From: Spirochaetales bacterium
GTDB taxonomy: Bacteria > Spirochaetota > Spirochaetia > Sphaerochaetales > Sphaerochaetaceae
Assembly: GCA_017614625.1 (NCBI GenBank)
Contig: JAGABK010000068.1
Span: 1-26,314 of the forward strand
DNA: 26,314 bases
Reading direction: 5' to 3'
Shown here in pieces: positions 5,853 to 22,156 of the stretch (its first letter is position 1; each line of letters opens with the position of its first letter). Under the pieces are notes generated by a model. The model made no database searches and was not told where the DNA came from. It was given only the letters and a program-made list of their open reading frames with translations. A program made the translations under genes and the position numbers.

Positions 5853-5860
5853 GGCCCACC

Positions 5861-6457
5861 TCAAATCACATACTTGAGCGAAACGCCCAGGATTCCGGAG
5901 AAGAATATGCCGGGAAGGCCCTTGTCCTCGGCAACGACCGAATGGAGATAATGGGGTACCACCAGATAATCAGCCTGCAGGGCAAGGAATCCTGCGATTT
6001 CCACTTCCACTGCGGCCTTGAACATGAATGTCCTGAGCATTAGTTCGGAGGGATATTCCGAGACATACTTCAGCCGCTTCAACAGCAGTCCGCCGGAAGT
6101 CACAACGACCTTCCCGTCATCCTGCCTCTTGGAGAATTCGAGGTTGATTCCCGCTCCGGCCTTCAGGGCCACCGGACCGGCCACTTTGAACCTGAAGCAC
6201 AGATACGTGGTGGTCATCACCTTGTCCTGTATCCCGACGTCGAGTTCAAGTCCCACCAAATCCTTCCAGAAAAGGCCCGCCTCCAGCCCGTATACGAAGC
6301 TGTCCGCATCCTTGAGGTTTTCGGAATTGGTGAAATCATGGTCGAACGGCCTGTACTCCGCACGCGGTCCCACGGAGAAGGAAACCGACGCAACCGCGGA
6401 AGACAGAACCAGGAAGAGCAGCAGAACGACAACCGGGAATGCTTTCAAACGCTTCAT
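5861..6457 (-). CDS. Small (198 aa) signal-peptide protein, predicted outer-membrane beta-barrel
   Basis: Start reassigned to ATG 6457 (MKRLKAFPVVVLLLFLVLSSAVA). Alternating hydrophobic strands (FVYGLEAGLFW, VALKAGAGINLEF, LALQADYLV) and terminal GILGVSLKYVI. The stop abuts the CotH RBS. Confidence 0.7.
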   Translation of the reverse strand: MKRLKAFPVVVLLLFLVLSSAVASVSFSVGPRAEYRPFDHDFTNSENLKDADSFVYGLEAGLFWKDLVGLELDVGIQDKVMTTTYLCFRFKVAGPVALKAGAGINLEFSKRQDDGKVVVTSGGLLLKRLKYVSEYPSELMLRTFMFKAAVEVEIAGFLALQADYLVVPHYLHSVVAEDKGLPGIFFSGILGVSLKYVI

Positions 6458-6582: not shown

Positions 6583-8367
6583 ATGAAAAAGCTGATTACC
6601 GTCCTGCTTCTGGCAGCACTTGTCCTGACTTCCGCTTTCGCCTATTCGAACCAGCAGAAGATCTATTCCGTGGACTCCGGCATCTACAAGGCCATGGAGA
6701 CACTGTACATCATGGCGGGAAAGGCCATGCCGTCCTCGTCCGGCCCCTGGAGCGAAGCGGAGCTCCAGCTGATGCTCGCAAGGATCGACAGGTCCTCCCT
6801 GTCCGAGGCTGCGCAGAAGTACTACGATTACATAAGCGCGGAAATCACATCCGAGCCAAAGCGCCAGTACGGCGACAACTTCGCCATGCAGTTCGGTTTC
6901 GAGATTGCGATCGAGGGCTATTTCCACACCGACAGCGACAATTTCACCCAGAACGAAGACTGGTTCCACAATTATGCGGACAGGCAGAAGTTCCTGAACT
7001 TCACGTTCGAGACCTGGCCCACGGACAACTTCTACGGCTATTTTGAGTTCTCTCTGGCCAACGGAATCATTCTCATGGACGGTAGCGGAAACAACGAACT
7101 CTACCAAAATACAATGTCAATCAACATTCCTGTAATGAATTCGCTTCTTTTCCTCGGAGAAGACCTTTTCAATGGTTTCGACTGGTCGTTCCCCAAACGG
7201 GCATTCGTTGCCGCAGGCGGAGAGCACTGGTCACTGATGGCCGGAAGGGACAAGCTTTCATGGGGCGGCGGCGAGACGGGTAACATGATGTTCTCGGATT
7301 CCTTCCCGCTGCACACGATGGTCAGGTTCAACACATTCTTCAACGCCTTCAAATACTCCATCGTCGGAACGGTCTATCCTTTCAGTGCCGCACCGCAGGG
7401 ACAGTTCACAAGCATGGACGGCTACAAGGCGCTTGTCGCCCACCGTCTGGAGTTCAATCTCTGCAAGGAGAAGGTCGGTCTCATCATAAACGAAGCCTGC
7501 ATGTTCTGGTCGAATCCGGCAATCGGACAGGATTTCTCCATTGCCCAGATAAACCCGTTCGGTTTCATGCACAACGAATATATAGCCAACAATGCGAATT
7601 CCCTTCTGGTTTTCGAGGCGAACTACACACCGCTTGCAGGCCTGAATATCTACGGCCAGTTGGCGGTTGATGAGTTCAGAGGCCCGGGTGAACCGAAGGA
7701 GAATCCGTCGGCATTCGGCTTCCTCGCAGGCGTGAAGGGCGCATTCGCAGCAGGAAGCGGAATCATGACAGGCTCGTTGGAATTCGCAAAAACCGATCCC
7801 TATCTTTTCCTCCGCGGTCTTCATTACTATGGAGGACCTTCATACGGCAACGAGAAGGTAGGCTACGGATACGATGCGATCTACAGAAGCTTCGTGATGG
7901 GCAACTCGGTTGTGTACTCAAGACAGTTCGTGACATACACATACGGGAACGACCTTATCCTCTTCGATGGCAGGGTGAACTATGAGAAGGCCGGTATCTT
8001 CAAGGTCGGATTCGAAGCCATGTACATGAAGCACGGCTCAATGGATGTCTCAAGCCCCTGGGGCAAGTACGACGGATCCCAGACGGACGAAACGCCCGAG
8101 GTCTCGACGCCTACGACATACAACGTGTTCGATTCCAATGATTACACAATCGGAACCGCCGCGAACAACTACGCAGACGGAGTTCTTATCCAGACACATG
8201 CCATTGAGCAGAGAATCGTCCTCTCGCTCACAGGCGAGTATTTCGTGGACGGATGCTTCAGCCTGAACCTCGCCGCCGACTACCTGATCATCAAAAACAA
8301 GGGCAATGTGGCGGACAACAATGCTTCGGACCTTCAGCTGACATTCGGACTGAAGTATTCTATCTGA
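6583..8367 (+). CDS. Wzi-like outer-membrane beta-barrel protein, paralog 3, 594 aa
   Basis: SD GGAG; signal peptide MKKLITVLLLAALVLTSAFA. Motifs IYKAMETLY..AGKAMPSSSGPWS, AGRDKLSWGGGETGNMMFSD, AHRLEF, INPFGFMHN, NIYGQLAVDE, terminal DLQLTFGLKYSI. Confidence 0.78.
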   Translation: MKKLITVLLLAALVLTSAFAYSNQQKIYSVDSGIYKAMETLYIMAGKAMPSSSGPWSEAELQLMLARIDRSSLSEAAQKYYDYISAEITSEPKRQYGDNFAMQFGFEIAIEGYFHTDSDNFTQNEDWFHNYADRQKFLNFTFETWPTDNFYGYFEFSLANGIILMDGSGNNELYQNTMSINIPVMNSLLFLGEDLFNGFDWSFPKRAFVAAGGEHWSLMAGRDKLSWGGGETGNMMFSDSFPLHTMVRFNTFFNAFKYSIVGTVYPFSAAPQGQFTSMDGYKALVAHRLEFNLCKEKVGLIINEACMFWSNPAIGQDFSIAQINPFGFMHNEYIANNANSLLVFEANYTPLAGLNIYGQLAVDEFRGPGEPKENPSAFGFLAGVKGAFAAGSGIMTGSLEFAKTDPYLFLRGLHYYGGPSYGNEKVGYGYDAIYRSFVMGNSVVYSRQFVTYTYGNDLILFDGRVNYEKAGIFKVGFEAMYMKHGSMDVSSPWGKYDGSQTDETPEVSTPTTYNVFDSNDYTIGTAANNYADGVLIQTHAIEQRIVLSLTGEYFVDGCFSLNLAADYLIIKNKGNVADNNASDLQLTFGLKYSI

Positions 8368-8387: not shown

Positions 8388-8414
8388 AACGGCACCGGGA
8401 AAACCGGTGCCGTT
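8388..8414. terminator. Bidirectional intrinsic terminator between Wzi-like paralog 3 and nagB
   Basis: 11-bp perfect stem AACGGCACCGG/CCGGTGCCGTT, loop GAAAA, with T-rich tails on both strands, between convergent stops at 8367 and 8421. Confidence 0.85.
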
Positions 8415-8420: not shown

Positions 8421-9158
8421 TCAGCCTATCAGCATCGACGCCGCGTCGTCGTCTATGAACAGATACCACTGCGGGTGCGTCTTGAGCAGCGTGGCGGGAA
8501 CCATATTGTTCACTTTCTGCGTTATAGTGTCATAGACGGCTTTGGCTTTGACCTTGTGGGGCACGACGGACACTATGGCCCTACACGCCATGATCTGCTT
8601 CGGGAGCATCGAGATGGCCTGTTTCGGGACATCGTCCTCCGTTGCGAACCAGCCCTCGCCCACCTGCTGCATGCGGCACTTGTGGTCCAGGTTCACGACC
8701 CTGTAGGCCTCGGTCGCATCGAAGTCCGCCGGCGGGTCGTTGAACGCGATGTGCCCGTTCTCGCCTATTCCGATCAGACCCACATCGACCTCCTCGCTGC
8801 GCAGGGCCTTTGTGAGTTCCTCAATGTTGGCCTTCACATCGCCTTCTCCGTTGACGAAATGTGCCGCAGCCGGATGGACGATGTTGACGAACCTCTCCTT
8901 CAGATACTTGCGGAACGATGCGATGTGGCTCTCCGGAAGACCCACGTACTCGTCCAGATGGAACATCTCGACCCTGGACCAGTCCACGTCGAGCTTCACC
9001 AGGGCCTCGAACATCTCGAACTGGCTTGCACCGGTCGACAGAATGATCCTGGCATGTCCCTTACTTGCTATGGCTTCATTGATGAGCTGGGCGGCCTTGA
9101 TTGCCGCCTTGCGTCCGTTCTCCGCTGCTATGGCGGAAACAGAAATGTTGATGTTCAT
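8421..9158 (-). CDS. nagB: Glucosamine-6-phosphate deaminase family protein (NagB/6PGL family), 245 aa
   Basis: ATG 9158 with SD GAGGTG. Motifs LSTGASQ, FHLDEYVGL, GIGENGHIAFNDPP, PATLLKTHP. It sits directly downstream of nagA. Confidence 0.8.
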   Translation of the reverse strand: MNINISVSAIAAENGRKAAIKAAQLINEAIASKGHARIILSTGASQFEMFEALVKLDVDWSRVEMFHLDEYVGLPESHIASFRKYLKERFVNIVHPAAAHFVNGEGDVKANIEELTKALRSEEVDVGLIGIGENGHIAFNDPPADFDATEAYRVVNLDHKCRMQQVGEGWFATEDDVPKQAISMLPKQIMACRAIVSVVPHKVKAKAVYDTITQKVNNMVPATLLKTHPQWYLFIDDDAASMLIG

Positions 9159-9165
9159 ATTCACC

Positions 9166-10320
9166 TCACAGAACGGCATTGCCGTCCACATAAACCTGTT
9201 TTATTCCGATGTTGCCGTCACAGACCACAAGGTCCGCGCGTTTTCCCGCCTCTATGGATCCGATCTCCCCGTCCAGACCGGCCAGAGCAGCCGGCTGCAG
9301 GCACAGTATCCTCGAGACCTCGTCCAGTCCGAGCCCCATGATGCAGTGGAGCGTCCTTGCCAGCCTGTCTCCGGTGGCCACGCTTCCCGCGAAACAGGAC
9401 CGGTCGGTGAGCTTCGCGATCCCGCCCTCTATTATGCACGGCATGCCGTTGTTCTTCGGACCCAGCACCGACGGCCCTTCGGGCATACCGGCACCTCTCA
9501 TGCTGTCGGAGCATGCGGTGATCCTGCCGTGGTCCTTGAGCTTGAAGATCATCCTCAGAAGGTCGGGCGGAAGGTGCAGTCCGTCGCAGATAAGCTCCAC
9601 GTTCATTCCGTCAATCAGATACCCGCTCTCAACTGCGCCCAGGATGCGGAAGCCTCCCCTTCTCGTGATCGTACTCATGCCGCTGTAGAAATGGGTAAGC
9701 ATGTTCAGGCCGTGGTCATAGGCCTCGGAAACCACATCGTATGTGGCAGCCGTGTGCGCCGCGGAGACCAGGATTCCGTGTGCGACCATGTCGTCGATGA
9801 AGCGCATGGCACCCGGAAGCTCCGGGGCCACGGACCATCTTCCCACAAGACCTCCGGCGGCCTCCAGCATGCGGTTGTAATGCTCCGGCTCGGGGTTGCG
9901 TATGTAACGGGGGTTCTGGGCGCCCTTCATCTCCATGTCGAAGTACGGTCCCTCGAGATGAAGAGCAGGCATCTTCGCACACAACGGCAGCCTGTTCTGC
10001 GCCTGTTCCCTGTGAATCTGCTTGAAATTCTCAAAGAAGGCCATCATTTCATCATCGGAACTGGTGAGCGTGGTCGGAAAGCAGGTCGTGGTCCCGTGCT
10101 TTGCGAGGCTCTGTGCTGCGCCCGTGATGTCGGATGCCGCGCCGTCCATGAAATCGAAACCGCCGCTTCCGTGCGTGTGCAGGTCCACGAATCCGGGCAT
10201 GATGAAACACTCCGGTTCCGGACACGGATGCTCCTTTATCCCGGTGATTCTTCCGTTCTCAAATGCGAGGGTTCCGCTGATTATCCTGTCCTTCAGGACT
10301 ATCTTTCCTTTGAGCTCCAT
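9166..10320 (-). CDS. nagA: N-acetylglucosamine-6-phosphate deacetylase, 384 aa
   Basis: Amidohydrolase motifs PGFVDLHTHG, LHLEGPY, AHT, THFYSGMS, ICDGLHLPP, SDSM, AGS, G.IEAGKRADLV. Confidence 0.93.
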   Translation of the reverse strand: MELKGKIVLKDRIISGTLAFENGRITGIKEHPCPEPECFIMPGFVDLHTHGSGGFDFMDGAASDITGAAQSLAKHGTTTCFPTTLTSSDDEMMAFFENFKQIHREQAQNRLPLCAKMPALHLEGPYFDMEMKGAQNPRYIRNPEPEHYNRMLEAAGGLVGRWSVAPELPGAMRFIDDMVAHGILVSAAHTAATYDVVSEAYDHGLNMLTHFYSGMSTITRRGGFRILGAVESGYLIDGMNVELICDGLHLPPDLLRMIFKLKDHGRITACSDSMRGAGMPEGPSVLGPKNNGMPCIIEGGIAKLTDRSCFAGSVATGDRLARTLHCIMGLGLDEVSRILCLQPAALAGLDGEIGSIEAGKRADLVVCDGNIGIKQVYVDGNAVL

Positions 10321-10327
10321 GGCCCCG

Positions 10328-10336
10328 ATTATAGCA
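10328..10336 (-). promoter_or_regulatory. Extended -10 promoter of nagA-nagB, probably leaderless
   Basis: Minus strand perfect TGnTATAAT (TGCTATAAT), 7 nt before ATG 10320; no SD. Confidence 0.7.
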
Positions 10337-10377
10337 CATTTCCGACGCTTCTTTCCAATTCCGAAGCCGAACCCCTA

Positions 10378-10405
10378 TTGTTTTTAATGATCTTTATGAT
10401 AGAAT
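10378..10405 (+). promoter_or_regulatory. Putative sigma70 promoter of the ABC operon
   Basis: TTGTTT (10378-10383), 16-nt spacer, extended -10 TGATAGAAT (10397-10405). SD GGAGG lies downstream, before ATG 10442. Confidence 0.5.
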
Positions 10406-10441
10406 TACCAAGCAATAGCATTTAATAGGAGGCTATATAAA

Positions 10442-11434
10442 ATGAAGAAAGCATTAGCAGTTCTTTTGATGCTGGCCGCTGTGTTCACAGTTTTCGCACA
10501 GGGCGCGGCAGAAGCAGATGCAGCTCAGGGCGCAAAGACCGAGAAGATGGAGTTGTACATCTACACAGGTGGAACAATCGATGAGTGTCAGGCTCTTATC
10601 GACGCATTCAATGTCAAGTATCCGAACGTAAAGTGCCAGATGGTGCAGGACAAGTCCGCCAACATCCCCACCAGAATCATCAACGGAGAGGAAGCGGATG
10701 TGATCATCCTTATCGCAAAGGAAAACCTCGATTCCATCCTCGACTACTATGTTCCCTACAAGACCGCTAACGATGCGCTGGTCGAAGATGTGTACAAGGA
10801 TTCGGAGTACAGGTATTATTCGATTTCCATGCCCCTGCAGACAATCATGTACAACACGGAAGAGGTCAAGGGCGACATGATTCCGAAGTCATGGTTTGAT
10901 CTTGCAGATCCCAAGTACAAGGGTCACATCGTTCTGACAAGCCCCTCGACCGGAAGCGGATATGCCCAGCTCTATATGCTCTACAAGCTTTCCGGAGACA
11001 ATCTCGAGCTTGCAAAGAAGATTGCAGAGAACGGAACGACATACCTTCCGGATTCAACGACAGGTCCTGCCGCTGTTGAAAGAGGAGAGTTCTGGTTCAC
11101 TCTCACAGGAGAGAAGAACGTCGCCACAGCCATGGCAAAAGGCAGTCCCGTCAACTATCTCTATCCTGAAGAGGGAACAGGCCGCAGAGTCGAAGGTGCC
11201 GGAATCATCAAGAACGGAAAGAACCTTGAAGCCGCAAAGCTCTTCATGGACTGGCTGACAAGCACAGACGGTGCGGAGACTCTCAGAAGCCTGGGAAGAA
11301 GATCCGTTTCCTCTGCAGTCGCAGGTCCCGACTATCTGCCCGCACTCAACGAAATCAACTTCTTCGAGTACAACGACGCAGAAGCCGCTTCAATCAAGAA
11401 GGCTCTTCAGGCAGAGTTCAACACATATCTCTGA
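10442..11434 (+). CDS. ABC transporter solute-binding protein, FbpA/AfuA family, 330 aa
   Basis: Signal peptide MKKALAVLLMLAAVFTVFAQG. Motifs IPKSWFDLADPKYKGHI, VERGE, YPEEGTG, IIKNGKNLEAAKLFMDWLTS. Confidence 0.88.
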   Translation: MKKALAVLLMLAAVFTVFAQGAAEADAAQGAKTEKMELYIYTGGTIDECQALIDAFNVKYPNVKCQMVQDKSANIPTRIINGEEADVIILIAKENLDSILDYYVPYKTANDALVEDVYKDSEYRYYSISMPLQTIMYNTEEVKGDMIPKSWFDLADPKYKGHIVLTSPSTGSGYAQLYMLYKLSGDNLELAKKIAENGTTYLPDSTTGPAAVERGEFWFTLTGEKNVATAMAKGSPVNYLYPEEGTGRRVEGAGIIKNGKNLEAAKLFMDWLTSTDGAETLRSLGRRSVSSAVAGPDYLPALNEINFFEYNDAEAASIKKALQAEFNTYL

Positions 11435-11455
11435 TTGCAAGACACAATCCTTCAT

Positions 11456-11490
11456 CGGGGCTGCCTGCCTGGCGGGCGGCCCTGTTTTTT
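11456..11490 (+). terminator. Intra-operon terminator/stabilising hairpin after the SBP gene
   Basis: Stem GGGCTGCCTGC/GCGGGCGGCCC (with G-U pairs) followed by TGTTTTTT. This arrangement is typical for producing excess SBP over ATPase and permease. Confidence 0.7.
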
Positions 11491-11530
11491 CCCAACCACC
11501 AATCATACCGACTAGGAGAAACTACTTCTT

Positions 11531-12652
11531 ATGAGCAAGAACGTAAGATATGAGAATGTAAACAAGATTTTCGGACTTGGAACCAAGAACGAGGTCCATG
11601 CCCTCAAAGACATTTCCTTCACCATCAACGAAGGAGAGCTGTTCTGTCTTCTCGGACCTTCCGGCTGCGGAAAGACAACTCTTCTGAGAAACACTGCAGG
11701 ACTGGACACCATCACTTCGGGAAAAATGTTTTACGGCGACGTGGACATCTCCACCATTCCTCCCTACAAGAGGAACATCGGAATGGTCTTCCAGAGCTAT
11801 GCCCTCTACCCGCACATGACGATCTTCGAGAATGTTGCTTACGGTCTCAGGGTCCGCAAGGTTCCAAATGACATCGTGACGAAGAAGGTCACCGAGGTCA
11901 TGGAACTCGTCGGACTGCAGGAGGAACTCAAGAGAAACCCGAGCCCCACCGCCCTTTCCGGCGGACAGCAGCAGCGTGTCGCAATCGCGCGCGCCCTTGT
12001 CTACGATCCGGACGTCCTGCTTCTGGACGAGCCCCTGGCGAACCTCGACGCCAAGCTGCGCCGCTACATGAGAGCCGAGATCCGCAGGATCCAGAAGGCA
12101 ACCAACATCACAACCATCTTCGTAACCCATGACCAGGAAGAGGCCATGGCGGTCGGAGACAGGCTTGCAGTCCTGAGAAAGGGAATCGTCGAGCAGATCG
12201 GAACCTCCGACGAGCTTTACAACCAGCCCAATAACGCTTTCGTGGCGAACTTCATCGGAAAGATGAACTTCTTCAACGCGCACGTGATTGCGTCGAACAA
12301 TGAGGAGACGGTCGCGGAAATAGACAAGACCGGCATAAGGATAGCCATCAAGAAGGAGCGCAGACATGTGGATCCGCTTGTCGGAGACGTGGTCCTGGTC
12401 GGAGGAAGACCCGAATACCTCTCCGTCTCGTCGGAGGATGAGGACGACTCGATTCCGGGAACGGTCAGGATAATCCAGCACCTCGGATCATTCATCCGTT
12501 ATGAAGTGGAGATCAGCGGCGAAATCTCTCCCGTCACTCTGGAGATCGATATGGACAGCTTGCAGAAGAACATCCATGAAGGTGACAAGGTCTATGTCAC
12601 GTTCGACAGGAACAGGGTCGCCCTGTTCTCACCGGAGGGTAGGGATTTATGA
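11531..12652 (+). CDS. ABC transporter ATP-binding subunit (FbpC/AfuC/PotA-like), 373 aa
   Basis: Walker A GPSGCGKTT, Q-loop VFQSYAL, signature LSGGQQQR, Walker B LLLDEP, H-loop VTHDQEEA, C-terminal TOBE-like region. Confidence 0.95.
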   Translation: MSKNVRYENVNKIFGLGTKNEVHALKDISFTINEGELFCLLGPSGCGKTTLLRNTAGLDTITSGKMFYGDVDISTIPPYKRNIGMVFQSYALYPHMTIFENVAYGLRVRKVPNDIVTKKVTEVMELVGLQEELKRNPSPTALSGGQQQRVAIARALVYDPDVLLLDEPLANLDAKLRRYMRAEIRRIQKATNITTIFVTHDQEEAMAVGDRLAVLRKGIVEQIGTSDELYNQPNNAFVANFIGKMNFFNAHVIASNNEETVAEIDKTGIRIAIKKERRHVDPLVGDVVLVGGRPEYLSVSSEDEDDSIPGTVRIIQHLGSFIRYEVEISGEISPVTLEIDMDSLQKNIHEGDKVYVTFDRNRVALFSPEGRDL

Positions 12653-14385
12653 GCAAGAAATACTCCATGATCGAGAATGGAGCGGAGACGAGCAAGATAA
12701 AGAAGTTCTTTCAGAAAGACTTCTCGCAGGTAATCATTTTTGCGATTCCCATGCTGTTCCTTGCCGTGTTCCTGCTCTACCCTATGGGAATTACGCTTCT
12801 CAGGGCATTCTGGAAACCGGCCAGTTACAATTTCAAGTTCACAGGCTGGTCACTCGACGGATTCAGACAGTTCTTCAGGACAAAGCTCTACCTCAAGAGC
12901 CTGCGCAATTCCGTGGTCGTCAGCACATCGGTCACCCTGTTGACCTTGCTGATCGGTGTTCCGATGGGCTATTGTGTCGCCAGGGTCAAGATCCCCGGGA
13001 AAAAGCTTCTTGTATCCCTCGGAATTCTCCCGATCATCATGCCGTCCTTTGTAGGTGCATACACCTGGGTCATCCTTCTTGGAAAAAACGGAATCCTGAG
13101 AGTGGCCCTCAACTGGATCCTGAACCCTTTCGGCATCAAGATTCCCAGCATCTACGGAATGTTCGGAATGATCCTGTGCATGACCCTCACCTACTATCCG
13201 TTCGTGTTCCAGATGGCATACGGTGCATTCTCGGGAGCGAACGCGCTTCTTGAGGAATCGGCCATGCTCATGGGTGCAGGCAAGGCAAGGATCATGAGGA
13301 CGATCACGCTGCCGCTGATCATCCCCTCCCTCGGAGCAGCGGCCCTTCTGGTCTTCGTCAGGGCAATCGGAAACTTCGGTATCCCGGCAGTCATCGGCGG
13401 AAACAATTATGTGCTTCCGACTCTGATCTCATTCGCCTATTCCGGTGACGGAGACATCAATTTCTCTTCGTCAATCGCAGTTCTGAACGTTGCAATTACC
13501 GCAATCGTCCTCTTCGTGCAGAAGTACATCGTCTCCAGACGCGAGTACGAGACAATCTCATCCAGCCACGTCGAAGTGAAACAGCATGAGGGAGTCGGTG
13601 CAAGGGTCTTCGCCATCATCCTGTGCCTGATTGTCCTTATCTTCTCGCTGCTTCCCCAGGTGACCATCATCGTGATGTCGTTCTTCAAGAACTGGACAGG
13701 TCTTCTTCCCACAGGCTTTACTCTTGACAACTACATCTCGATTCCCAGGAAAGCACACAGGGAACTGTTCAATTCGTTCTTCCTATCCATTGTCGCAACC
13801 ATGCTCTGCGCCATCTTCGGTTCGATCCTCGCATACATCACCGAGAGAAAGAAACCCAAGGGAGCGTCTCTGCTGGACCTCTCCATCATGGCTCCGTTCA
13901 TTCTGCCGGGCACGGTTGTTTCCATTGCGCTGATCTCTGCATTCGGCGGAAACAGCGTGTTCAAACTGACAGGAACATATACGATCCTGCTTATCTCCTA
14001 CATGATAAGAAGAACCCCGTATGTCTACCGCTCGGTTGCTGCCAACCTCACCCAGCTGAACCCGTCGCTTGAGGAAGCGAGTACGATAAGCGGCGCGACC
14101 TGGTTCTACACATTCAGGAAAGTCAGCGTGCCTCTCATCATGCCGTCCATCATCTCCGGTTCGGTAATGACTCTCACGACCCTGCTCCAGGAGTTGAGCA
14201 CGACAATCCTTCTCTCCGGAGCAAGAACGAGAACCGTCCCGATCCTTATCTACAATGCGGTTCTTGCGAACAGTCTCGGACAGGCAAGCGCTTTGTCGAC
14301 TGTCCTGCTCATCGTGGTATTCATCATCATTTACGCGATGAACAGCAGAAAGGGAACAAATCTGGCTTCCTCGATGAAGATGTAA
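12649..14385 (+). CDS. ABC transporter permease, fused two-half FbpB/AfuB type, 578 aa
   Basis: About 12 hydrophobic segments and two EAA motifs (LEESAMLMGA, LEEASTISGA). ATGA overlap with the ATPase gene. Confidence 0.93.
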   Translation: MSKKYSMIENGAETSKIKKFFQKDFSQVIIFAIPMLFLAVFLLYPMGITLLRAFWKPASYNFKFTGWSLDGFRQFFRTKLYLKSLRNSVVVSTSVTLLTLLIGVPMGYCVARVKIPGKKLLVSLGILPIIMPSFVGAYTWVILLGKNGILRVALNWILNPFGIKIPSIYGMFGMILCMTLTYYPFVFQMAYGAFSGANALLEESAMLMGAGKARIMRTITLPLIIPSLGAAALLVFVRAIGNFGIPAVIGGNNYVLPTLISFAYSGDGDINFSSSIAVLNVAITAIVLFVQKYIVSRREYETISSSHVEVKQHEGVGARVFAIILCLIVLIFSLLPQVTIIVMSFFKNWTGLLPTGFTLDNYISIPRKAHRELFNSFFLSIVATMLCAIFGSILAYITERKKPKGASLLDLSIMAPFILPGTVVSIALISAFGGNSVFKLTGTYTILLISYMIRRTPYVYRSVAANLTQLNPSLEEASTISGATWFYTFRKVSVPLIMPSIISGSVMTLTTLLQELSTTILLSGARTRTVPILIYNAVLANSLGQASALSTVLLIVVFIIIYAMNSRKGTNLASSMKM

Positions 14386-14402
14386 TCGTTGTCAAATTGC
14401 AG

Positions 14403-14436
14403 AAAAGGCCTGTACCGATCGGTGCAGGCCTTTTTT
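14403..14436. terminator. Bidirectional intrinsic terminator between the permease and the epimerase
   Basis: Stem AAAAGGCCTGTACC/GGTGCAGGCCTTTT (one G-U pair), loop GATC, with A and T tracts on either side. Confidence 0.88.
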
Positions 14437-14438
14437 CT

Positions 14439-15704
14439 TCATCCGAGAAGCTCGCAGATGAGAAGCAGGTTGCGCGTTATATGGAACGGATCCTTGACAG
14501 GAAGGGCCACAACCTTCTCCTGCGGAAGGCCTTCCCTGGTGAGGATCTGAATCCACTCCCCCACATTCCTGTCAGGATTGGGGAAATGTGAGAAAACATA
14601 GTCGAAGGTCCTGTCATGGATATCCAGGAATTCCGGGTCTCCGGTCTTTAGGTAGAACCTCAATGAAGCATACAGGGTCTCGGAATGGACCCACCAGAGC
14701 TTGTCGCCCCACCCGCCTTTGACCAGCGTCACGGTAGGCTCCGGGGAATCGGACTCGAAGACAAGCGGGTCTCCGTCGATGTTCACGAAATGCAGGATGC
14801 CGCCGTACTGCGCATCCCAGCCGGCACTGAACGCGGTCTTCATGATCAGGGCCGCTGCATCGGAAATGTCATTTCTTCCAAGAATTACAGCTGCATCATC
14901 CAGGAACCATGAATCCTCAATGGAATGGCCCGGATTGATATGGTTGCCCAGAAGCCCTGGAACACGGCTGTTGTCGCTTCCTATGACCTCATGGATGAGA
15001 GAAGACCCGTCCCTGAAGTTGTCTATGACATCACAGGCCGTCTTTTCCATGTCGGACAGCAGCCTTGAAGCGAAGGTCCGGTCGAACCTCATGGCCGCAC
15101 AGTGCAGTTCCCTTGCCACGTTGGTGAGTATCATGGGGATTCCGTGGGCCCTGTAGGCGCTTCCCAGAGGATAAGGCAGCGTATTGAACTTTCCGCTCTC
15201 CACCCTTTCGACAACGGAGAGGTAAAGGTTCTTTCCGAAAGCGTAGGCTTCTCCGTCCCCCGATGCGACGGAATAGGCGGCCATGCCGATTATCACGAAG
15301 CAGTCGGCGTAGATGCTCATGTCAAGGGTATCGTATGAACCCACCTTCTTCGGCGTCCCGTCGCGCTCCATCAGGAAAATGCAGCGCCAGTCGTCCTCTC
15401 CCATCAGGCAATGGGAGCGCAGGAACGAGTACCCGGATTCCGCAAGACGCAAGAACTCCTTCCTTTCCTCTTCTGAAAAAAGCGGGGCCTGTGTCGAGGC
15501 GAGCCGTGAGAACATCCAAAGGAAGCGTCCCTGGCTCCAGGTGTACTTGTCATGGGAGACCAGATTCTCACCCCTGTTGTCGAAACAGTTCAGATAACCC
15601 CCGAACTGCCTGTCCTCGCAGCGCGGGAGCCAGAAACCGAGGATGTTCTCCTTCAGTTCCCTTGAGTAGAAATTATACAGCTTCTTCCTGCAGGCCGGTT
15701 CCAT
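14439..15704 (-). CDS. N-acylglucosamine 2-epimerase (AGE family), 421 aa
   Basis: Motifs KYTWSQGRFLW, NPGHSIEDSWF, GWD..YGG, KLWWVHSE, KDPFHITR. Both catalytic-His motifs of AGE-type enzymes are present. Confidence 0.87.
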   Translation of the reverse strand: MEPACRKKLYNFYSRELKENILGFWLPRCEDRQFGGYLNCFDNRGENLVSHDKYTWSQGRFLWMFSRLASTQAPLFSEEERKEFLRLAESGYSFLRSHCLMGEDDWRCIFLMERDGTPKKVGSYDTLDMSIYADCFVIIGMAAYSVASGDGEAYAFGKNLYLSVVERVESGKFNTLPYPLGSAYRAHGIPMILTNVARELHCAAMRFDRTFASRLLSDMEKTACDVIDNFRDGSSLIHEVIGSDNSRVPGLLGNHINPGHSIEDSWFLDDAAVILGRNDISDAAALIMKTAFSAGWDAQYGGILHFVNIDGDPLVFESDSPEPTVTLVKGGWGDKLWWVHSETLYASLRFYLKTGDPEFLDIHDRTFDYVFSHFPNPDRNVGEWIQILTREGLPQEKVVALPVKDPFHITRNLLLICELLG

Positions 15705-15708
15705 CGAC

Positions 15709-17241
15709 TCAGTATCTTGCCCAGCCGGCCTTCACATAGCGGTCGGTTATTTCCCTGACGTAGCCGTTGAACCTTGCGCACTCGTCCGGGTCGTTGGACA
15801 CGATCTCCCAGCGGCACATGGCGTCCTCGCTTCTGGAGATGCGCTGGGCCACCTGGACCCACTTCTTTCCCTCCAGCGAGGAGGAGGCGTCGAACTCAAG
15901 CGGCAGGTTGAACCTCATGAGGCAGGCGTCCAGATCGCTTCCGTCGTCCATTTCCTTGATGACGGTTGCGCCCAAAGAGCGCATCTTCTGCTCGACCTCG
16001 TCCATGAGAAGCGGCATCTTCTCGGGAGCGGCCTCGCAGTAGAGCGGCCATTCCCTTTCCCTGAAGAGCGAGGTCTGCAGCCTGTAGGCCCTCTCGTAGG
16101 CGGCCGGGTCCTCCTTGTAGCACCTTGCGCTCAGGAGGGCGATGAACAGCGTGGACTCTATTGCGGCGAAACCCTTGGAGAAATCGTCCGGGTCGTACGG
16201 GTAGTTCATGTAGTAGTGGGCGGACTCCTCCTCCGCTGCCAGATATCCCCTGTCGCAGTTGTTGCGCAGCTTCTCCTTGATGAACGAATGCCCGTTGCGG
16301 ATGATGTGAACCTTCACCCCGGTCTTCGCAATCTCGCAGAGCGAAAGCGGAATCGCCTTGACATCGGCATAGACATCGGTCTTGGTGCCCTTGAGGATCT
16401 CGATCATCCTGCGGACGATGATGGACATGTTCAGGCCGGGGACAATCTGCTCGCCGTTGGGGGCCATGAGGTCCACACGGTCGCCGTCACCGTCGAAGCA
16501 GAAGCCGAAATCGAAGTTGCCTTCACGCATGGCGACCCTGGCAGGTGCGATGGAGGTCTCGATGATCGGATTCGGGTCGCCCTGGCGGAAGAATCCGTCG
16601 GGCACGACGTTGCGGACCTCGACCTCGGCTCCGGCGCGCTGGAAAGCAAGTGCCATCTCGCTTCCGGCCGATCCGTTGAGGAACTCGAGCATGATCCTGG
16701 TTCCCTTGAGGGTACCCTCCTTCACGCCGGAGAGCTTCATGCAGTAATCGATATAGGACTCGAGGCAGTTGATGATGACCGTCCTGCCGCGGCCGTCGCC
16801 TTCGACGCACGCTCCGCTCTTGTACAGTTCGAGGATCTTCCTGATTCCGCCGGCGGGACCGCATTCCATGGCTATGGAAGAGACCTCGGGAGCCATGAGC
16901 TTGAGGCCGATGTACTCTGCCGGGTTGTGCGAGGCGGTGACCATGATTCCGGCCGCTTCGCGGTACTGCATGCAGGTGTAGTAGAACTGGCATGTGGAGA
17001 TCGGAAGCGGATTGAGATATACGTCCAGGCCGGCCCTGCGGAGCCACAGCTCGAGGCCCTCCGCGATCTCCGGCACGTAAAGGCGCGCGTCACGTCCGAT
17101 CACGACGGCCTTCGCCTTCACGTAGTCCCTGAAATAGAGGGCCACCGCATTGAAGAGGCGGGTCTTGATCTCCGGTGTGAGATTCTTGTATTTCGTCCTG
17201 ACATCGTACTGCTTGAACATCGAGAGGTTGAGGTTTTCCAT
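15709..17241 (-). CDS. Alpha-D-phosphohexomutase (PMM/PGM-like), 510 aa
   Basis: FKQYDVR, phosphoserine loop TASHNP, metal loop FDGDGDR, sugar-binding loop EESAH. Confidence 0.9.
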   Translation of the reverse strand: MENLNLSMFKQYDVRTKYKNLTPEIKTRLFNAVALYFRDYVKAKAVVIGRDARLYVPEIAEGLELWLRRAGLDVYLNPLPISTCQFYYTCMQYREAAGIMVTASHNPAEYIGLKLMAPEVSSIAMECGPAGGIRKILELYKSGACVEGDGRGRTVIINCLESYIDYCMKLSGVKEGTLKGTRIMLEFLNGSAGSEMALAFQRAGAEVEVRNVVPDGFFRQGDPNPIIETSIAPARVAMREGNFDFGFCFDGDGDRVDLMAPNGEQIVPGLNMSIIVRRMIEILKGTKTDVYADVKAIPLSLCEIAKTGVKVHIIRNGHSFIKEKLRNNCDRGYLAAEEESAHYYMNYPYDPDDFSKGFAAIESTLFIALLSARCYKEDPAAYERAYRLQTSLFREREWPLYCEAAPEKMPLLMDEVEQKMRSLGATVIKEMDDGSDLDACLMRFNLPLEFDASSSLEGKKWVQVAQRISRSEDAMCRWEIVSNDPDECARFNGYVREITDRYVKAGWARY

Positions 17242-17243
17242 AA

Positions 17244-18098
17244 TCAGCTTTCCTTTAAAATCAGTTTTTCAATGGCCTTTGCGAAGCCGTCCTCGTCATA
17301 TCTGTCGGTCACGTAGTCGGCGATGGCCTTCACATCGTCCGGGGCGTTCTCCAACGTCACGCCAATGGCTGCATGCTGCATCATCTGGCCGTCCAGAAGC
17401 ATCGAATCGCCTATGCTCAGGACGTTGTCGAACGTGATGCCTATGCGGTCCAGCAGCACCTGCATGGCCTCTATGCAGTCCATGTCGCGGTTGAAGACCT
17501 GGATTCCCACGGGGTCCGACAGCTTGGTCCCTGCGAAAGGCATGCTGTTGAAACGGTCCTGCATGTCCTGGAACTCCTCCTCCGGGATTCCGTAGAGGTT
17601 GATCTTCTCCAGTCCTATGTTGTTCTCAAGGAAGTAGTCAGAAAGCTTTCCCTCCACGGTCACCGGCCTGCCGGATGCGTACATGTACCATACGTGGTGA
17701 GGCGGCACCGGGTATTTCCACAGATTGTCCATGACCTGTTTCTCGAAGAAAAGCTTGCCTTCGGCCGCGACCTCGCAGTAGATGCCCTTGCCTTCGAAGA
17801 CCCTGCAGATTTCCGAGCTCTGCTGTGGCGTGAACGTGCTTTTGTAGATTATCTCACCGGTCTGCCTGTCCAGGACCCTGGCTCCGCAGCAGGTGAACCA
17901 GTACCTGTATGAAGGGTCCTCGAACTGCGGCGGGAACATGTCCGCGGACCTTCCCGTGCAGGGAATGCAGACGATTCCCCTCTTCTGAAGCTCCTGCAAC
18001 GCGCGGAAGTTGCGCGGGCTGAGCCAGATCTTGTCTTTCTGAAGTGTGGTTCCGTCAAAATCCAGGGTTATCGCCTTGATTTCACAATTATCAAACAT
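17244..18098 (-). CDS. Cof-type HAD-IIB hydrolase with atypical motifs III/IV, 284 aa
   Basis: Motif I LDFDGT, motif II TGRS, and C-terminal GD...D..M...A.IGV.LENA.DDVKAIADYVT....EDGFAKAI. Confidence 0.85.
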   Translation of the reverse strand: MFDNCEIKAITLDFDGTTLQKDKIWLSPRNFRALQELQKRGIVCIPCTGRSADMFPPQFEDPSYRYWFTCCGARVLDRQTGEIIYKSTFTPQQSSEICRVFEGKGIYCEVAAEGKLFFEKQVMDNLWKYPVPPHHVWYMYASGRPVTVEGKLSDYFLENNIGLEKINLYGIPEEEFQDMQDRFNSMPFAGTKLSDPVGIQVFNRDMDCIEAMQVLLDRIGITFDNVLSIGDSMLLDGQMMQHAAIGVTLENAPDDVKAIADYVTDRYDEDGFAKAIEKLILKES

Positions 18099-18192: not shown

Positions 18193-19986
18193 ATGAAGAG
18201 AACCGCTGCCCTTGCCATCCTCGCGCTGCTTCTGATCGCGGCCCTGCCCCTGTGCGCGACCCAGGTGAAAGCAAAGACCTTTCCCCTGGATTCCGAGATA
18301 TACGACCTCATGGACGCCCTCTATTCGATCCAGGGCCTCGCCCGCCCGTCGACAGGACGCCCGTGGTCTCAGTCCGAGGCAGATCTCATCTTCTCCCGCA
18401 TCGACGGCACAGACCTGTCCCCCGCGGCGAAGAACGCATACACCCGCATTGAGGAGCTTCTGGCCGATGGCATGCGATGGGACTTCGACGACTACGGCCT
18501 TGGCGTGAAGTTGGACCTTGCCATCGAGGCCTATCTCCATTCCAATGCCGATGACTTCACGACCGATGCCGACTGGCTGCGCGGTTTCGAGGACCGCCGC
18601 CCGCTGGCGAAGCTGTCGATGGACTTCTCCGTCTCCGATTTCTTCTACACCTACTGCGACCTGCAGTACGGCTACGGGCGTGTTTCGAAGTACGACACCT
18701 TCATAGCCCTCAATCCGGACCACAGCGGCGGCCTTCTCTCCAACGACGGCTACATCGGCAGCTACAAGATGGACGGAGGATCACACATCCTGGCCTGGTC
18801 GGCCCAGTACTCCCCCGTCTTCGCAACCAACATCATCCCCAAGAGCGACCATTTCGACTTCATATGGCCCAAGCGCGCGCTGATAGCCGTAGCCGGAGAC
18901 CGGTGGAGCCTCCAGTTCGGCCGCGACAGGCTCGAGATCGGAAACTCGACCCTGGGGAACCTCCTCGTGGACAACCACACCGACTTCGAGGACTATTTCA
19001 CCGCCGCCTTCTTCAGCAGCGGCTTCAAATACCAGTGGACCAACCTCTTTCTGAACGGAATCTCGGACAACGCCGAGGTCCGTACGGACGACACCAGGAT
19101 CTTCATGATCCACACCCTGGAGTTCCGCCCGCTGAAGAACCTGTCCTTCACCATCTCCGAGGACGTCATGTTCAAGATCGCCTCGGACAACAACAGCCCG
19201 CAGGTCCTGGACTTCTCCTTCCTGAACCCGGCCTTCATCTGGCACAACCTCAACAACCGCTCGATGTTCAACGCCATAGCGTACGCAGAAGCCGCCTGGA
19301 CGCCGGTCAGGGGTCTTGAGGTCTACGGCCAGTTCGCGCTGGACCAGGCAGTGGCCCCGAACGAGAACCACGACCAGGGCGACGCCTGGGGTCTGGTGAC
19401 AGGCTCGAAGTACACCACCGTCCTCGGAAGCGGTATCGCCGTCTTCCATGCCGAGTTCGCCCACACCACACCGCTCCTGTACCGCCGCGACAAGGTCGAT
19501 TTCGTCAAGATGACCCGCTATTTCCATCTGACAACCGAAAGCCAGCTCCAGCCCGACTCGGATTACGCAAGCTTCTCCAGCAACGCACTGGTGTTCGAAT
19601 ACATCGGCTTCCCCTACGGAGGCGACGTGCAGGCGCTGGAGATCGGAGGAAAATGGATGCTGCCCGGGACTCTCAAGGTCACGGCCTACGCCAGGTTCCT
19701 CCAGCAGGGAGAGTTCAACCTCTTCGTCTCGCACAGCATGGACGGCTACAACGACAACATGCCCAACTACACGGGGAACACCCCGTCAGGAACAAACTGG
19801 ACGCGCTGCATCTTCCTCTCCTCCAATGTGGAGTACAGGATGGACAGCCTCTTCGACTGGCCGGGCGTGACGCTTGAAGCCCAGCTGGACTGGATCGGGA
19901 AATGGAGCTACGCAGCCGACACGAAAACCTATTCCGGCGGCCGCACGGATACCCAGTTCTCGATCAGTGTGAATGTGGAGATATGA
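18193..19986 (+). CDS. Wzi-like outer-membrane beta-barrel protein, paralog 4, 597 aa
   Basis: Start reassigned from 18046 to ATG 18193 (signal peptide MKRTAALAILALLLIAALPLCA). Motifs IYDLMDALY..QGLARPSTGRPWS, FGRDRLEIGNSTLGNLLVD, HTLEFR, LNPAFIWHN, EVYGQFALDQ, terminal DTQFSISVNVEI. Visibly closest to paralog 2. Confidence 0.78.
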   Translation: MKRTAALAILALLLIAALPLCATQVKAKTFPLDSEIYDLMDALYSIQGLARPSTGRPWSQSEADLIFSRIDGTDLSPAAKNAYTRIEELLADGMRWDFDDYGLGVKLDLAIEAYLHSNADDFTTDADWLRGFEDRRPLAKLSMDFSVSDFFYTYCDLQYGYGRVSKYDTFIALNPDHSGGLLSNDGYIGSYKMDGGSHILAWSAQYSPVFATNIIPKSDHFDFIWPKRALIAVAGDRWSLQFGRDRLEIGNSTLGNLLVDNHTDFEDYFTAAFFSSGFKYQWTNLFLNGISDNAEVRTDDTRIFMIHTLEFRPLKNLSFTISEDVMFKIASDNNSPQVLDFSFLNPAFIWHNLNNRSMFNAIAYAEAAWTPVRGLEVYGQFALDQAVAPNENHDQGDAWGLVTGSKYTTVLGSGIAVFHAEFAHTTPLLYRRDKVDFVKMTRYFHLTTESQLQPDSDYASFSSNALVFEYIGFPYGGDVQALEIGGKWMLPGTLKVTAYARFLQQGEFNLFVSHSMDGYNDNMPNYTGNTPSGTNWTRCIFLSSNVEYRMDSLFDWPGVTLEAQLDWIGKWSYAADTKTYSGGRTDTQFSISVNVEI

Positions 19987-20585
19987 AGCGCAAGATCCTT
20001 TTACTTCTGCTTTCCGTAATGCTTTGCATGGAATTGTCCGCAACCTTCAGCATCGACATCAGGACGGGCATCACAAAAACTGAAGCCGGTATCGGTATCG
20101 GAATCGGCAGGAACGAGCTGAAGGTCGGTTGCACGTCGGCTTATCCGAATCTGGCCTTCCACATGAAGCAGGAGGAAGACTGGCAGTTCAAGTACTATAC
20201 CACCGACATGGCCGGCCTTCTTCTGGATGCGTTCTACTACTACAATTCAATGGAAGTGGGCATGCTGTTCGGTCTGTCAGGGGAAAGCAGCGCCGTCTCG
20301 GTGCATCTGGGTCCGCAGCTGTATTGCAGCCATACTGACGGAAAGTGGATCGGAATCGACCTCACCGAAACGGACATAGGAATCAACCTTGCCGCCGTCG
20401 TGAAGGCTCACCTCTCGAAACACTTCGGTCTGAGCGTTCAATGCGGAATTCCCCTGGCGCACGTGGCGTTCTCGAAAAACCAGGAAATCTGCTTCTCAAG
20501 CATCCTCTCGGACGAACGTATACTGAAGGAAGTCCTCTATTCGGTTTCGGCAGGCCTGTTCCTTGAATTCGGAGGCGGAAGATGA
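19983..20585 (+). CDS. Small (200 aa) signal-peptide protein, predicted outer-membrane beta-barrel
   Basis: ATG 19983 overlaps the upstream stop as ATGA. Signal peptide MKRKILLLLLSVMLCMELSA; beta-strand patterns (VSVHLGPQL, IGINLAAVVKAH, FGLSVQCGIP, VSAGLFLEF). Confidence 0.68.
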   Translation: MKRKILLLLLSVMLCMELSATFSIDIRTGITKTEAGIGIGIGRNELKVGCTSAYPNLAFHMKQEEDWQFKYYTTDMAGLLLDAFYYYNSMEVGMLFGLSGESSAVSVHLGPQLYCSHTDGKWIGIDLTETDIGINLAAVVKAHLSKHFGLSVQCGIPLAHVAFSKNQEICFSSILSDERILKEVLYSVSAGLFLEFGGGR

Positions 20586-22156
20586 GACGACGTGCGATAA
20601 TCCTGCTCTGCCTGCTGTCCGTTCTCCTTCTTCCCTCCTGCACGGAATACATCCCGTTCCTGGAGGAGAAAGCCGGTTCGTTCGCATCGGTCAGCCAACG
20701 GGACGGAATCATATGCATAAGCGAGAACAACGGAGACGGCCGGGGAAGGCCCGTGACGCTGACTGCCGCCTTCAACGGAGACGGGGACCGTGAATACAGC
20801 TACCAGTGGTTCGTCTGCTCCGACGAGAGCAAGAGCGGCGGAATGAAGATCGACGGGGCGACGGAAAGGACCTACACCACCGGATACCTCGATGAGATCG
20901 GGAAAGTCTATTACTACTATTGCGAGATCACCGGAAAAGAAGGCCTCGTGAAGAAGACAAAGGAAACCAAGGTGTTCTATGTCTGCTGCACCGGACTGCC
21001 GACGCTCATCATCGACACCGAGAACAATGCGGAGATCGTGAACAAGACGGACAAGATCCCTGCGACGATCAGATACGTCTCGGCCACGCAGGACCTCGAG
21101 CTGGCATCGACGGTCAAGGGACGCGGCAACGCAAGCTGGTACTATTTCCCGAAACGGGGCTATACGATCAAGCTGGACAAGAAAACCGCCTTCGGGAGCC
21201 TTCCGAAAAGCAAGAAGTGGGTCCTGGTGTCCAATTACAACGACAAGACCCTCCTGAGGAACTGGTTCGCCTCCTTCATGGACAACACCGTCCTGGATAA
21301 CGATACCAACTGGAATCCGAGGTACATCCACGTGGACTGCATCCTGAACGGAGAATACATCGGCAACTACACCCTGGTGGAGCAGATCAGAATCGATGAC
21401 AACAGGCTGAACCTGCCGGACATCGCCGAACAGGAGGATCCCGCGGACGGAGGATTCATCCTTGAAGTCAACTGGCGCATGGACGAGGCGTACAATTTCG
21501 TATCCGACCACGGAGTGAAATTCAGCCTGAAGGACCCGGACCTCGAGGACCTGGATGCCGATCAGGCGGAAGCCGTGTTCTCGTACATCAAGGCTCTGGT
21601 CAACAACGCAGAGGATGTGCTGTACTCGGATGACTTCGACCATTTCGCCTCTTATTTCGACATCCCCTCCTTCGTGGACTGGTACATCGTCAATGAGATA
21701 GCCAAGACCTGGGACGGCAGATTCAGCACCTCCGTCTACATGTATTACGATCCGGACGATTCCCTCATCCACATGGGACCGGACTGGGATTACGACGATG
21801 CGTGGGGTGGAACCGACTCGCAAGACAGGGTCTCGACCGACGGCTTCTATCTCAACGACTGCGCATGGTACGCGCATCTGTTCAAGTGTCCGGATTTCGT
21901 TTCCGCCCTGAAGGACAGATGGAACGACAGGAAGGCGGCGATAATCGACTCCGTCAACCATCTGCAGGCCATGTCGGAGACCCTTGCCGTTTCGGCGGAC
22001 CTGAATTTCAAGAAATGGGACATCCTCGGCACAAGGGTCTTCACCTCAGCCCCGGGCTACGAGAAGAGGAAGACCTATCAGAGCGAGATCGATTTCATGA
22101 AGAACTGGATACTTGAGAGAATCGAATGGCTTGATCCTGCGATCAACGGCCTATGA
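20582..22156 (+). CDS. CotH kinase-family lipoprotein with N-terminal Ig-like domain, copy B, 524 aa
   Basis: ATGA overlap with the upstream gene. Lipobox VLLLPS-C. Motifs TGLPTLIIDT, VKGRGNASW, PKRGYTIKL, KWVLVSNYNDKTLLRN, LNGEYIGNY..VEQIR, KTWD, MGPDWDYD. Confidence 0.9.
   Translation: MRRRAIILLCLLSVLLLPSCTEYIPFLEEKAGSFASVSQRDGIICISENNGDGRGRPVTLTAAFNGDGDREYSYQWFVCSDESKSGGMKIDGATERTYTTGYLDEIGKVYYYYCEITGKEGLVKKTKETKVFYVCCTGLPTLIIDTENNAEIVNKTDKIPATIRYVSATQDLELASTVKGRGNASWYYFPKRGYTIKLDKKTAFGSLPKSKKWVLVSNYNDKTLLRNWFASFMDNTVLDNDTNWNPRYIHVDCILNGEYIGNYTLVEQIRIDDNRLNLPDIAEQEDPADGGFILEVNWRMDEAYNFVSDHGVKFSLKDPDLEDLDADQAEAVFSYIKALVNNAEDVLYSDDFDHFASYFDIPSFVDWYIVNEIAKTWDGRFSTSVYMYYDPDDSLIHMGPDWDYDDAWGGTDSQDRVSTDGFYLNDCAWYAHLFKCPDFVSALKDRWNDRKAAIIDSVNHLQAMSETLAVSADLNFKKWDILGTRVFTSAPGYEKRKTYQSEIDFMKNWILERIEWLDPAINGL

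Follow-up and report, generated by a model that had tools for sequence, protein, structure and literature searches.

What does a bacterium take up through an importer whose genes lie among enzymes of amino-sugar phosphate breakdown, with no kinase beside them? The question is raised by a cluster of eight genes in a Spirochaetales bacterium of the family Sphaerochaetaceae. We have analysed contig JAGABK010000068.1 (26,314 nt) of assembly GCA_017614625.1, which is 67.5% complete; this whole stretch will be called the window, and the cluster is found in positions 8421–18098. All eight genes are intact, as judged from the list of open reading frames (ORFs) and from family-profile searches, and each has the position, strand and family assigned to it in the initial annotation. 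The nagA and nagB genes run leftwards and those of an FbpA/AfuA-family ATP-binding cassette (ABC) importer, with a solute-binding protein (SBP), an ATPase and a permease, run rightwards from a gap of 121 bases between them. The genes of a HAD phosphatase, a phosphohexomutase and an AGE-family epimerase converge on the permease gene, with intergenic gaps of 2 and 4 bases. No ORF for a ROK protein, a phosphotransferase system (PTS) component, NanA or a regulator is found within the cluster.

Our answer, to which we give a probability of about one half, is that the cluster imports an N-acetylhexosamine (HexNAc) 1-phosphate or its phosphodiester, which would then pass through the mutase, NagA and NagB. 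The ligand, every activity and the direction of flux are predicted from gene content, gene order, conservation and residue patterns. The SBP-dependent importer would take up a phosphorylated HexNAc, most likely as 1-phosphate or phosphodiester. In the full operon found in relatives a TIM barrel similar to endonuclease IV and CbiR would cut the diester and release the free sugar 1-phosphate; the mutase would shift the phosphate from C1 to C6, and the products of the NagA-like and NagB-like steps would be fructose-6-phosphate, acetate and ammonia. For the manno epimer the epimerase would provide the conversion, with the 6-phosphate as substrate or else the free sugar that a PPM-like or HAD phosphatase releases. 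The lineage of the window, which has no barrel at the locus, would take a monoester or rely on a hydrolase encoded elsewhere.

The SBP was found in 63 of 196 genomes of the family (E ≤ 1e-30); two weak matches (G094, G204) were dropped as paralogues, which leaves 61. With 8 less complete genomes they provide 69 loci, many of them cut by contig ends, whose gene content was determined by tblastn. A well-flanked set of 36 loci has at least 7 kb on both sides. Kin are not independent, and all locus and genome counts are descriptive, not tests. Among 300 genomes of the phylum outside the family, a single one had an SBP match at 1e-60, and in a 50%-identity library the scores drop from 301 to 252 bits after ten clusters. 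The neighbours of the importer are, in number of loci out of 69 (well-flanked loci out of 36 in brackets): NagB-like 45 (27), barrel 43 (25), DeoR regulator 41 (27), mutase 35 (22), AGE 30 (16), NagA-like 23 (14), PPM-like 23 (17) and HAD 6. A phosphoesterase-like gene is present in 34 of the 36 well-flanked loci, and NagA, NagB or AGE in 32. Throughout Sphaerochaetaceae these gene families recur around the importer, in many different orders, and this clustering far exceeds chance. Conservation of the gene set, on which the initial annotation depended, is observed; its statement that there is no regulator holds for the window and fails in the relatives, where DeoR is frequent. At the genome level the mutase occurs in 54 of 61 genomes with the SBP and in 34 of 135 without it; the figures for the barrel are 46 of 61 and 8 of 135.

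The fullest operon is found in the single-contig genome G189, where the genes follow one another closely in the order DeoR, barrel, PPM-like, SBP, ATPase, permease, AGE, mutase, nagA, nagB. In other genera the order is mutase-DeoR-barrel-ABC-AGE-nagA-nagB (L078, L084), and a Bullifex porci record (L026) has an order of this type without nagA; its permease is split into two ORFs of 213 and 363 aa (L026:15436-17168). Compared with them, the window locus is a derived form, a reduced and rearranged copy of the Sphaerochaetaceae operon. It lacks the barrel, the PPM-like gene and DeoR, it has HAD instead, and the mutase lies between HAD and AGE. In close kin (L054, L055, L056, L059, L061) the locus comprises nagB(-nagA), the importer and HAD-AGE, and HAD and AGE are not separated by a mutase. 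The order in the window is not an assembly error, because both mutase junctions are spanned by contigs from a second study (two runs): HAD/mutase (X2, 16990–18081) and mutase/AGE (X3, 15327–15834). The HAD-mutase-AGE operon of the initial annotation is real, and among the loci compared its HAD-mutase pair is unique to the window.

The importer had been described as AfuABC-like. The SBP has the class II/cluster D fold and is accompanied by an FbpB-type permease and an ATPase. Its structure model (pLDDT 89.5) has apo-AfuA as top fold match (4R72; Z 34.0, root-mean-square deviation 2.5, 295 aligned residues, 24% identity); ferric-binding proteins come close behind (Z 30–32), and Foldseek ranks HitA first. 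In AfuA the phosphate is bound by S37 and T150 and the ring by H205, D206 and E229, each of these three being essential. Its ligands are glucose 6-phosphate, fructose 6-phosphate and sedoheptulose 7-phosphate, with no binding of glucose, fructose or glucose-1-phosphate (PMC4546632). In P5PA the same phosphate site serves another ring (PMC8427247). We have compared the phosphate residues S37, S148, G149 and T150 of AfuA by counting along the SBP/AfuA alignments: they correspond to S72, T170, G171 and S172, the first of them mapped through 8X1A and less certain. These positions are kept in the orthologues (S72 in 65 of 67, G171 in 70 of 70, S172 in 69 of 70), and position 170 is Ser in 67 of 70. 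The sugar motif H205/D206/E229 is replaced by K225, at a variable position, N226 and R249. Invariant in the 70 orthologues are Q133, G171, E224, N226, R249, R286 and R287.

Judged by its residues, the SBP is AfuA-like and not an AfuA: the closest fold and the phosphate site agree with the initial description, the sugar motif fails, and therefore the 6-phosphate ligands of AfuA are not transferable to it. AfuA refuses glucose-1-phosphate, and the SBP has other residues in place of the three that AfuA needs for its sugar; this is what a different phosphate ester as ligand would lead one to expect. The three invariant arginines may point to a more anionic ligand, for example a diester or a pyrophosphate.

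For the mutase the reference was given by the four active-site regions of GlmM (PMC10087520). All of them are present, with the phosphoserine, metal, sugar and phosphate loops seen in alpha-D-phosphohexomutase superfamily members; S104, D250/D252/D254, E338/S340/H342 and R467/S469/R477 are invariant in 31 sequences. The protein falls below every equivalog cut-off (GlmM, PMM/PGM). A plain housekeeping PMM/PGM, the alternative which the initial annotation had in view, is rejected: the genome has its own GlmM (515 against a cut-off of 447.55) and a PMM-like gene elsewhere, and the window mutase is a third enzyme in a separate clade. In a quick tree with very long outgroup branches, 50 members of the mutase subfamily form one group apart from the GlmM and PMM of the source genome (support 98). 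The closest named relatives are Sphaerochaetaceae and Spirochaetales records, mostly from rumen and gut.

A search for this subfamily gave 106 places. In 36 of them it lies beside the importer studied here (35 relatives and the window); 40 others were picked by hand and 30 were left out. Another importer adjoins 27 of the 40; the remaining 13 have none, 3 of them at contig ends. The other importers are a second FbpA-like ABC system, the tripartite tricarboxylate transporter (TTT), a PhnCDE-type ABC system and TAXI, so that the subfamily is found beside five importer types in total. For the SBP of the second ABC system the PDB gave no informative match. An RNase Z/PhnP-like hydrolase accompanies the TTT loci and two of the three PhnCDE-type loci, and some paralogues adjoin zwf- and pgl-like genes. 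Since this mutase is found again and again after importers and phosphodiesterase-like genes, the best reading is that it acts on imported sugar 1-phosphates.

Eight TTT loci (L211, L213, L216, L217, L230, L244, L248, L249) have the operon TctC-TctB-TctA, RNase Z/PhnP-like hydrolase, mutase, DeoR; this TTT may carry a sugar-phosphate ester. The PhnCDE-type loci (L233, L234, L241) have a mutase paralogue and a LacI-like upstream gene, a metallo-beta-lactamase hydrolase in two cases, and no carbon–phosphorus (C-P) lyase genes in view.

The association may have arisen twice. In three kin (G009, G011, G025) the mutase is found at another site, near radC; this site is present without mutase on contig C90 of the source genome. 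The window mutase groups with those three copies (support 100, again in the quick tree). It has probably been recruited again, because same-genus kin carry it elsewhere and the matching site is empty here; a move into the operon in the window lineage, as a second and independent linkage, is the simplest reading. Positions 1–642 (minus strand) of the window contain the start of a second FbpA-like SBP, whose matching C-terminal part, permease and ATPase are found on contig C191 (1–3466) of the same genome (G000); the two ends have no exact overlap. In kin a mutase paralogue comes after the second importer; none was found in the source genome, so that the window mutase may serve both importers.

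The barrel of the relatives has nine invariant residues: H55, H98, E173, D202, H205, H234, D247, H249 and E276. We take this His/Asp/Glu set to resemble the nine metal ligands of endonuclease IV. The CbiR phosphodiesterase model is matched at E 2e-11, below cut-off (44 bits against 105); CbiR is a small-molecule phosphodiesterase of a superfamily which also includes sugar epimerases (PMC7733943). The barrel model has a pLDDT of 96. Its best profile and fold matches are MJ1311 and endonuclease IV, with TM-scores of 0.6–0.65 (Foldseek only); endonuclease IV provides 11 of the 13 best fold matches, and sugar epimerases appear from rank 14 with similar scores. In 80 metagenome loci the barrel is mostly found in this operon, otherwise often after TTT and an RNase Z-like gene. 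With the barrel the fuller operon gains a predicted phosphodiesterase, in keeping with a phosphodiester source.

The PPM-like protein has no match in Pfam and none among the sequences of the PDB. Its top Atlas cluster is PPM-type, with PF13672 on 18% of the members, and its acidic motifs, comparable to the ED, DG, DG and DD metal motifs of PPM/PP2C, are invariant in 18 sequences. Plasmid searches with the PPM-like and AGE proteins gave distant matches only, and the two PPM contexts viewed were unrelated.

The remaining enzymes keep their catalytic residues, with one exception in the NagB-like protein. NagA-like (212.7 against the TIGR00221 cut-off of 225.65) has H48, H50, E123, H189, H210, R220, H249 and D272 in 24 of 24 sequences, which we take to be the positions of the metal ligands, the catalytic Asp and the phosphate Arg. 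NagB-like (118.5 bits against 236.9 for TIGR00502) has D69, H136 and K204 invariant in 27 aligned sequences, and the Glu of its triad is replaced by Asp (D141) in all 27; the sites would correspond to the catalytic Asp, the His-Glu pair and the phosphate loop. The best PDB matches of AGE are four true AGEs (E 1e-45 to 6e-43). It reaches 206.9 against a cut-off of 600 for NF052547, and it reads VALPVKDP in place of the glycine-rich C-terminal motif. R60, H260, E263, E342, H408 and R411 are invariant in 21 sequences, and E263 and E342 align with E243 and E309 of Nostoc AGE (PMC6333288). A canonical NagA is found elsewhere in all five kin tested, so the NagA, NagB and AGE of the operon are probably paralogous subtypes, for a gluco, manno or galacto sugar. 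A non-acetylated substrate, argued from the loci without nagA, was dropped for the same reason. Where the ordinary AGE is missing, in L110 (263-2941), L111 and L115, DeoR is followed by a protein of 892 aa whose AGE domain is distant.

Is the system then free of kinases? The source genome has, on other contigs, a hexokinase and an NahK-like N-acetylhexosamine 1-kinase (E 7e-62 to Bifidobacterium NahK); therefore "kinase-free", as the initial annotation put it, describes the locus and not the cell, and a kinase route has to be weighed. The genome also has two PfkB genes, two DHDPS-family genes and one ROK protein, whose best score is with a NagC-type repressor; PTS EIIC and BadFG kinases gave no match, which at the completeness of this assembly is not an absence. 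Kinases of the NahK type produce a 1-phosphate (PMC11992087, PMC6109692). Five kinase queries from the source genome matched at a single one of the 69 loci, a ROK protein (L114). A Pfam scan covering 107 of 151 flanking ORF representatives, with some others scanned separately, recovered this ROK protein; in L100 it also showed, upstream, a GHMP kinase together with a nucleotidyltransferase, and L101 has the same pair. Six genomes (G214, G191, G212, G203, G211, G208) have NahK-like matches in open frames of 1049–1173 aa, which suggests fusion proteins.

Several facts weigh against the import of a HexNAc 1-phosphate or diester. Besides the two kinases of the source genome, a hexokinase is found in all five of the operon-bearing genomes without NahK that were tested; two of the 69 loci have the GHMP kinase and nucleotidyltransferase immediately upstream, and one has a ROK protein nearby. 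Mutase, AGE, NagA and NagB are all together in only 7 of the 69 loci, and HAD and mutase share none of them, their adjacency being unique to the window. The subfamily mutase is present in the 34 genomes without this SBP already counted, and it is missing in 7 of the 61 which have it. NagA-like, NagB-like and AGE are all below curated cut-offs. The barrel, whose superfamily has epimerases as well, was found neither in the source genome nor in five close kin, and a phosphatase among the genes of the operon does not sit easily with a route which retains the phosphate.

This last point leads to the best alternative, which we still consider rather unlikely. An amino-sugar phosphate such as N-acetylmannosamine (ManNAc) 6-phosphate might be imported, dephosphorylated by HAD or PPM, epimerised by AGE and rephosphorylated, by hexokinase or by NahK followed by the mutase; such a route would not be kinase-free. 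It would account for the position of HAD, which adjoins AGE in all six relative loci possessing it and never occurs with the PPM-like gene or the barrel among the 69 loci, like a replacement. Characterised AGEs act on free N-acetylglucosamine (GlcNAc) and ManNAc (PMC6333288), and the 1-phosphate made by the NahK homologue (PMC11992087) would require a mutase. However NahK does not track the importer: it is present in 41 of 61 genomes with the SBP and in 78 of 135 without it, and no match to it is found in 15 genomes that have both SBP and mutase, which weakens it as an operon partner. The barrel and the repeated position of the mutase subfamily on the side of importers would also be left unexplained.

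It is also improbable that the ligand is a phosphate ester of another kind (a hexose-1-phosphate diester, a nucleotide or a phosphonate), used for phosphate or carbon, with NagA and NagB acting on something else or loosely attached. Among NCBIfam models, SBP, ATPase and permease score best with those of the putative 2-aminoethylphosphonate transporter PhnS2/T2/U2, each below cut-off (110 against 392.75 bits for the SBP with TIGR03261). No NagA, NagB or AGE is detected by tblastn in 4 of the 36 well-flanked loci, paralogous mutase operons lie beside the zwf/pgl-like genes in some genomes, and the NagB-like subtype is uncharacterised. Against this, the other 32 loci have at least one of these three enzymes, in many orders and with catalytic residues kept in all three, and no phnW, phnX or C-P lyase family appears among the flanking ORFs scanned.

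An ordinary locus for uptake of free GlcNAc or ManNAc, using the hexokinase or NahK of the genome, is very unlikely. AGE, NagA and NagB are indeed the usual gene set for free HexNAc, and both kinases are available; but the SBP has the AfuA/FbpA fold with phosphate residues and is not a member of the sugar-binding families, AfuA binds no free glucose or fructose, and the phosphoesterases would be left without a role in 34 of 36 loci. Finally, a ferric-iron importer placed among sugar genes by chance, in spite of the JGI labels "iron(III) transport" and of FbpA-type fold scores near that of AfuA, is hardly credible and is rejected (iron binding would have refuted the initial annotation): FbpA has two iron-binding Tyr at the positions of AfuA H205/D206, where Tyr is not among the five commonest residues (225) and Asn is found in 70 of 70 (226), the phosphate residues are kept, and the neighbourhood is a conserved set for sugar-phosphate metabolism.

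All parts of the proposed HexNAc phosphate pathway come from known superfamilies; together they would make up an operon for import and catabolism of a sugar phosphate, in which three of the subfamilies are uncharacterised. GlcNAc is usually degraded through NagK or a PTS followed by NagA and NagB, and ManNAc in Bacteroidota through AGE and a ROK kinase. Here too AGE, NagA-like and NagB-like converge on fructose-6-phosphate, but the locus has neither kinase nor PTS; it has a mutase and phosphoesterases instead, and its NagA and NagB are subtypes below cut-off. AfuABC of A. pleuropneumoniae (PMC4546632), P5PA (PMC8427247) and VcA0625 (8X1A) share with our importer the fold, the three-gene layout and the phosphate Ser/Gly/Thr. 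Apart from the low identity and the replaced motif of the SBP, AfuABC differs from our importer in that the latter is linked to catabolic enzymes of its own, which are not needed for the 6-phosphate ligands of AfuABC. The barrel resembles CbiR and endonuclease IV (PMC7733943) in its fold matches and its nine-residue His/Asp/Glu set, and the CbiR model is matched; unlike CbiR it is well below the cut-off and has no cobamide genes nearby. The mutase has all four active-site regions in common with GlmM, PMM/PGM and the eukaryotic GlcNAc-phosphate mutase AGM1 (PMC10087520). It differs from them by its separate clade (about 24–30% identity), its catabolic context beside importers, the EESAH sequence of its sugar loop and, in the phosphate loop, one more invariant Arg (R470). 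GlcNAc-1-phosphate is a catabolic intermediate in the lacto-N-biose/galacto-N-biose pathway of Bifidobacterium, with NahK (PMC6109692), and in the BT4240 system of B. thetaiotaomicron (PMC11992087); there it is made inside the cell by a kinase of the operon, and here no kinase is linked, although the source genome has the NahK homologue. The initial annotation knew of no such pathway, and our searches of the open-access literature, mainly of listings and abstract openings, gave no account of this operon or of HexNAc phosphate import in bacteria.

The coordinates of the individual features are given in Table 1.

Table 1. Features of the cluster in the window
Feature	Position	Strand	Remarks
Perfect 11-pair hairpin between convergent Wzi-like gene and nagB	8388–8414		Spotted by eye
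NagB-like glucosamine-6-phosphate deaminase/isomerase, FNDPP subtype	8421–9158	-	245 aa; start 9158 preferred to 9191; PF01182
NagA-like N-acetylhexosamine-6-phosphate deacetylase	9166–10320	-	384 aa; TIGR00221 below cut-off; best PDB matches all NagA
SBP, AfuA/FbpA fold, family-specific subfamily	10442–11434	+	Structure model and residue map
Terminator-like hairpin between SBP and ATPase genes	11456–11484	+	13 pairs with T run; consensus match only
ABC ATPase with TOBE domain	11531–12652	+	Family-profile searches
Two-domain ABC permease, FbpB/AfuB type	12649–14385	+	Family-profile searches
Hairpin flanked by runs of A (before) and T (after), where permease and AGE genes converge	14403–14436	.	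Spotted by eye; absent from terminator scan listing
AGE-family epimerase, VALPVKDP subtype	14439–15704	-	421 aa; PF07221
Alpha-D-phosphohexomutase, importer-linked subfamily	15709–17241	-	510 aa; PF02878-80
Cof-type HAD-IIB phosphatase	17244–18098	-	284 aa; PF08282; TIGR00099 108.8 against cut-off 137

The hairpin which follows the permease gene is likely a two-way terminator. A promoter scan was uninformative, with 7 sites against 4.4 ± 2.0 expected by chance. In one bovine-gut RNA run, contigs match parts of three genes (SBP, mutase, HAD) with 0–3 differences, which is not a proof of transcription. Five long genes of a similar build surround the cluster (933–2543, 2599–4464, 6583–8367, about 18196–19986 and 22157–23770). 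Two of them have weak Wzi matches (PF14052) below cut-off and two others resemble each other; they are not neighbours of the cluster in relatives. Two genes for CotH-family protein kinases, 4371–5864 (minus strand) and 20582–22156 (plus strand), are interleaved with them; this family does not phosphorylate sugars. At the right end, 24224–26125 (minus strand), the translations look by eye like a TrmH-family methyltransferase and DnaJ.

A wider picture can be offered tentatively. Sphaerochaetaceae might salvage the amino-sugar phosphodiesters or nucleotide sugars of dead cells by importing the whole ester through a new SBP subfamily, cleaving it with the barrel, and leading it into glycolysis without a kinase through a dedicated bacterial GlcNAc/ManNAc-phosphate mutase and an AGE acting on the 6-phosphate; the mutase subfamily might be a general marker of sugar-1-phosphate import, and would then give a ligand class to five orphan importer types. 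If the proposed HexNAc phosphate pathway is true, ATP would drive the uptake of an amino-sugar 1-phosphate or phosphodiester (AfuA rejects glucose-1-phosphate), a bacterial HexNAc-phosphate mutase would work in catabolism, and the endonuclease IV fold would act on a small-molecule substrate new to it. The labels "iron(III) transporter" and "phosphomannomutase" would be corrected on dozens of genomes. These spirochaetes, which are common and poorly understood inhabitants of rumen, gut and digesters, would then have a niche in phosphorylated cell-envelope or nucleotide-sugar debris.

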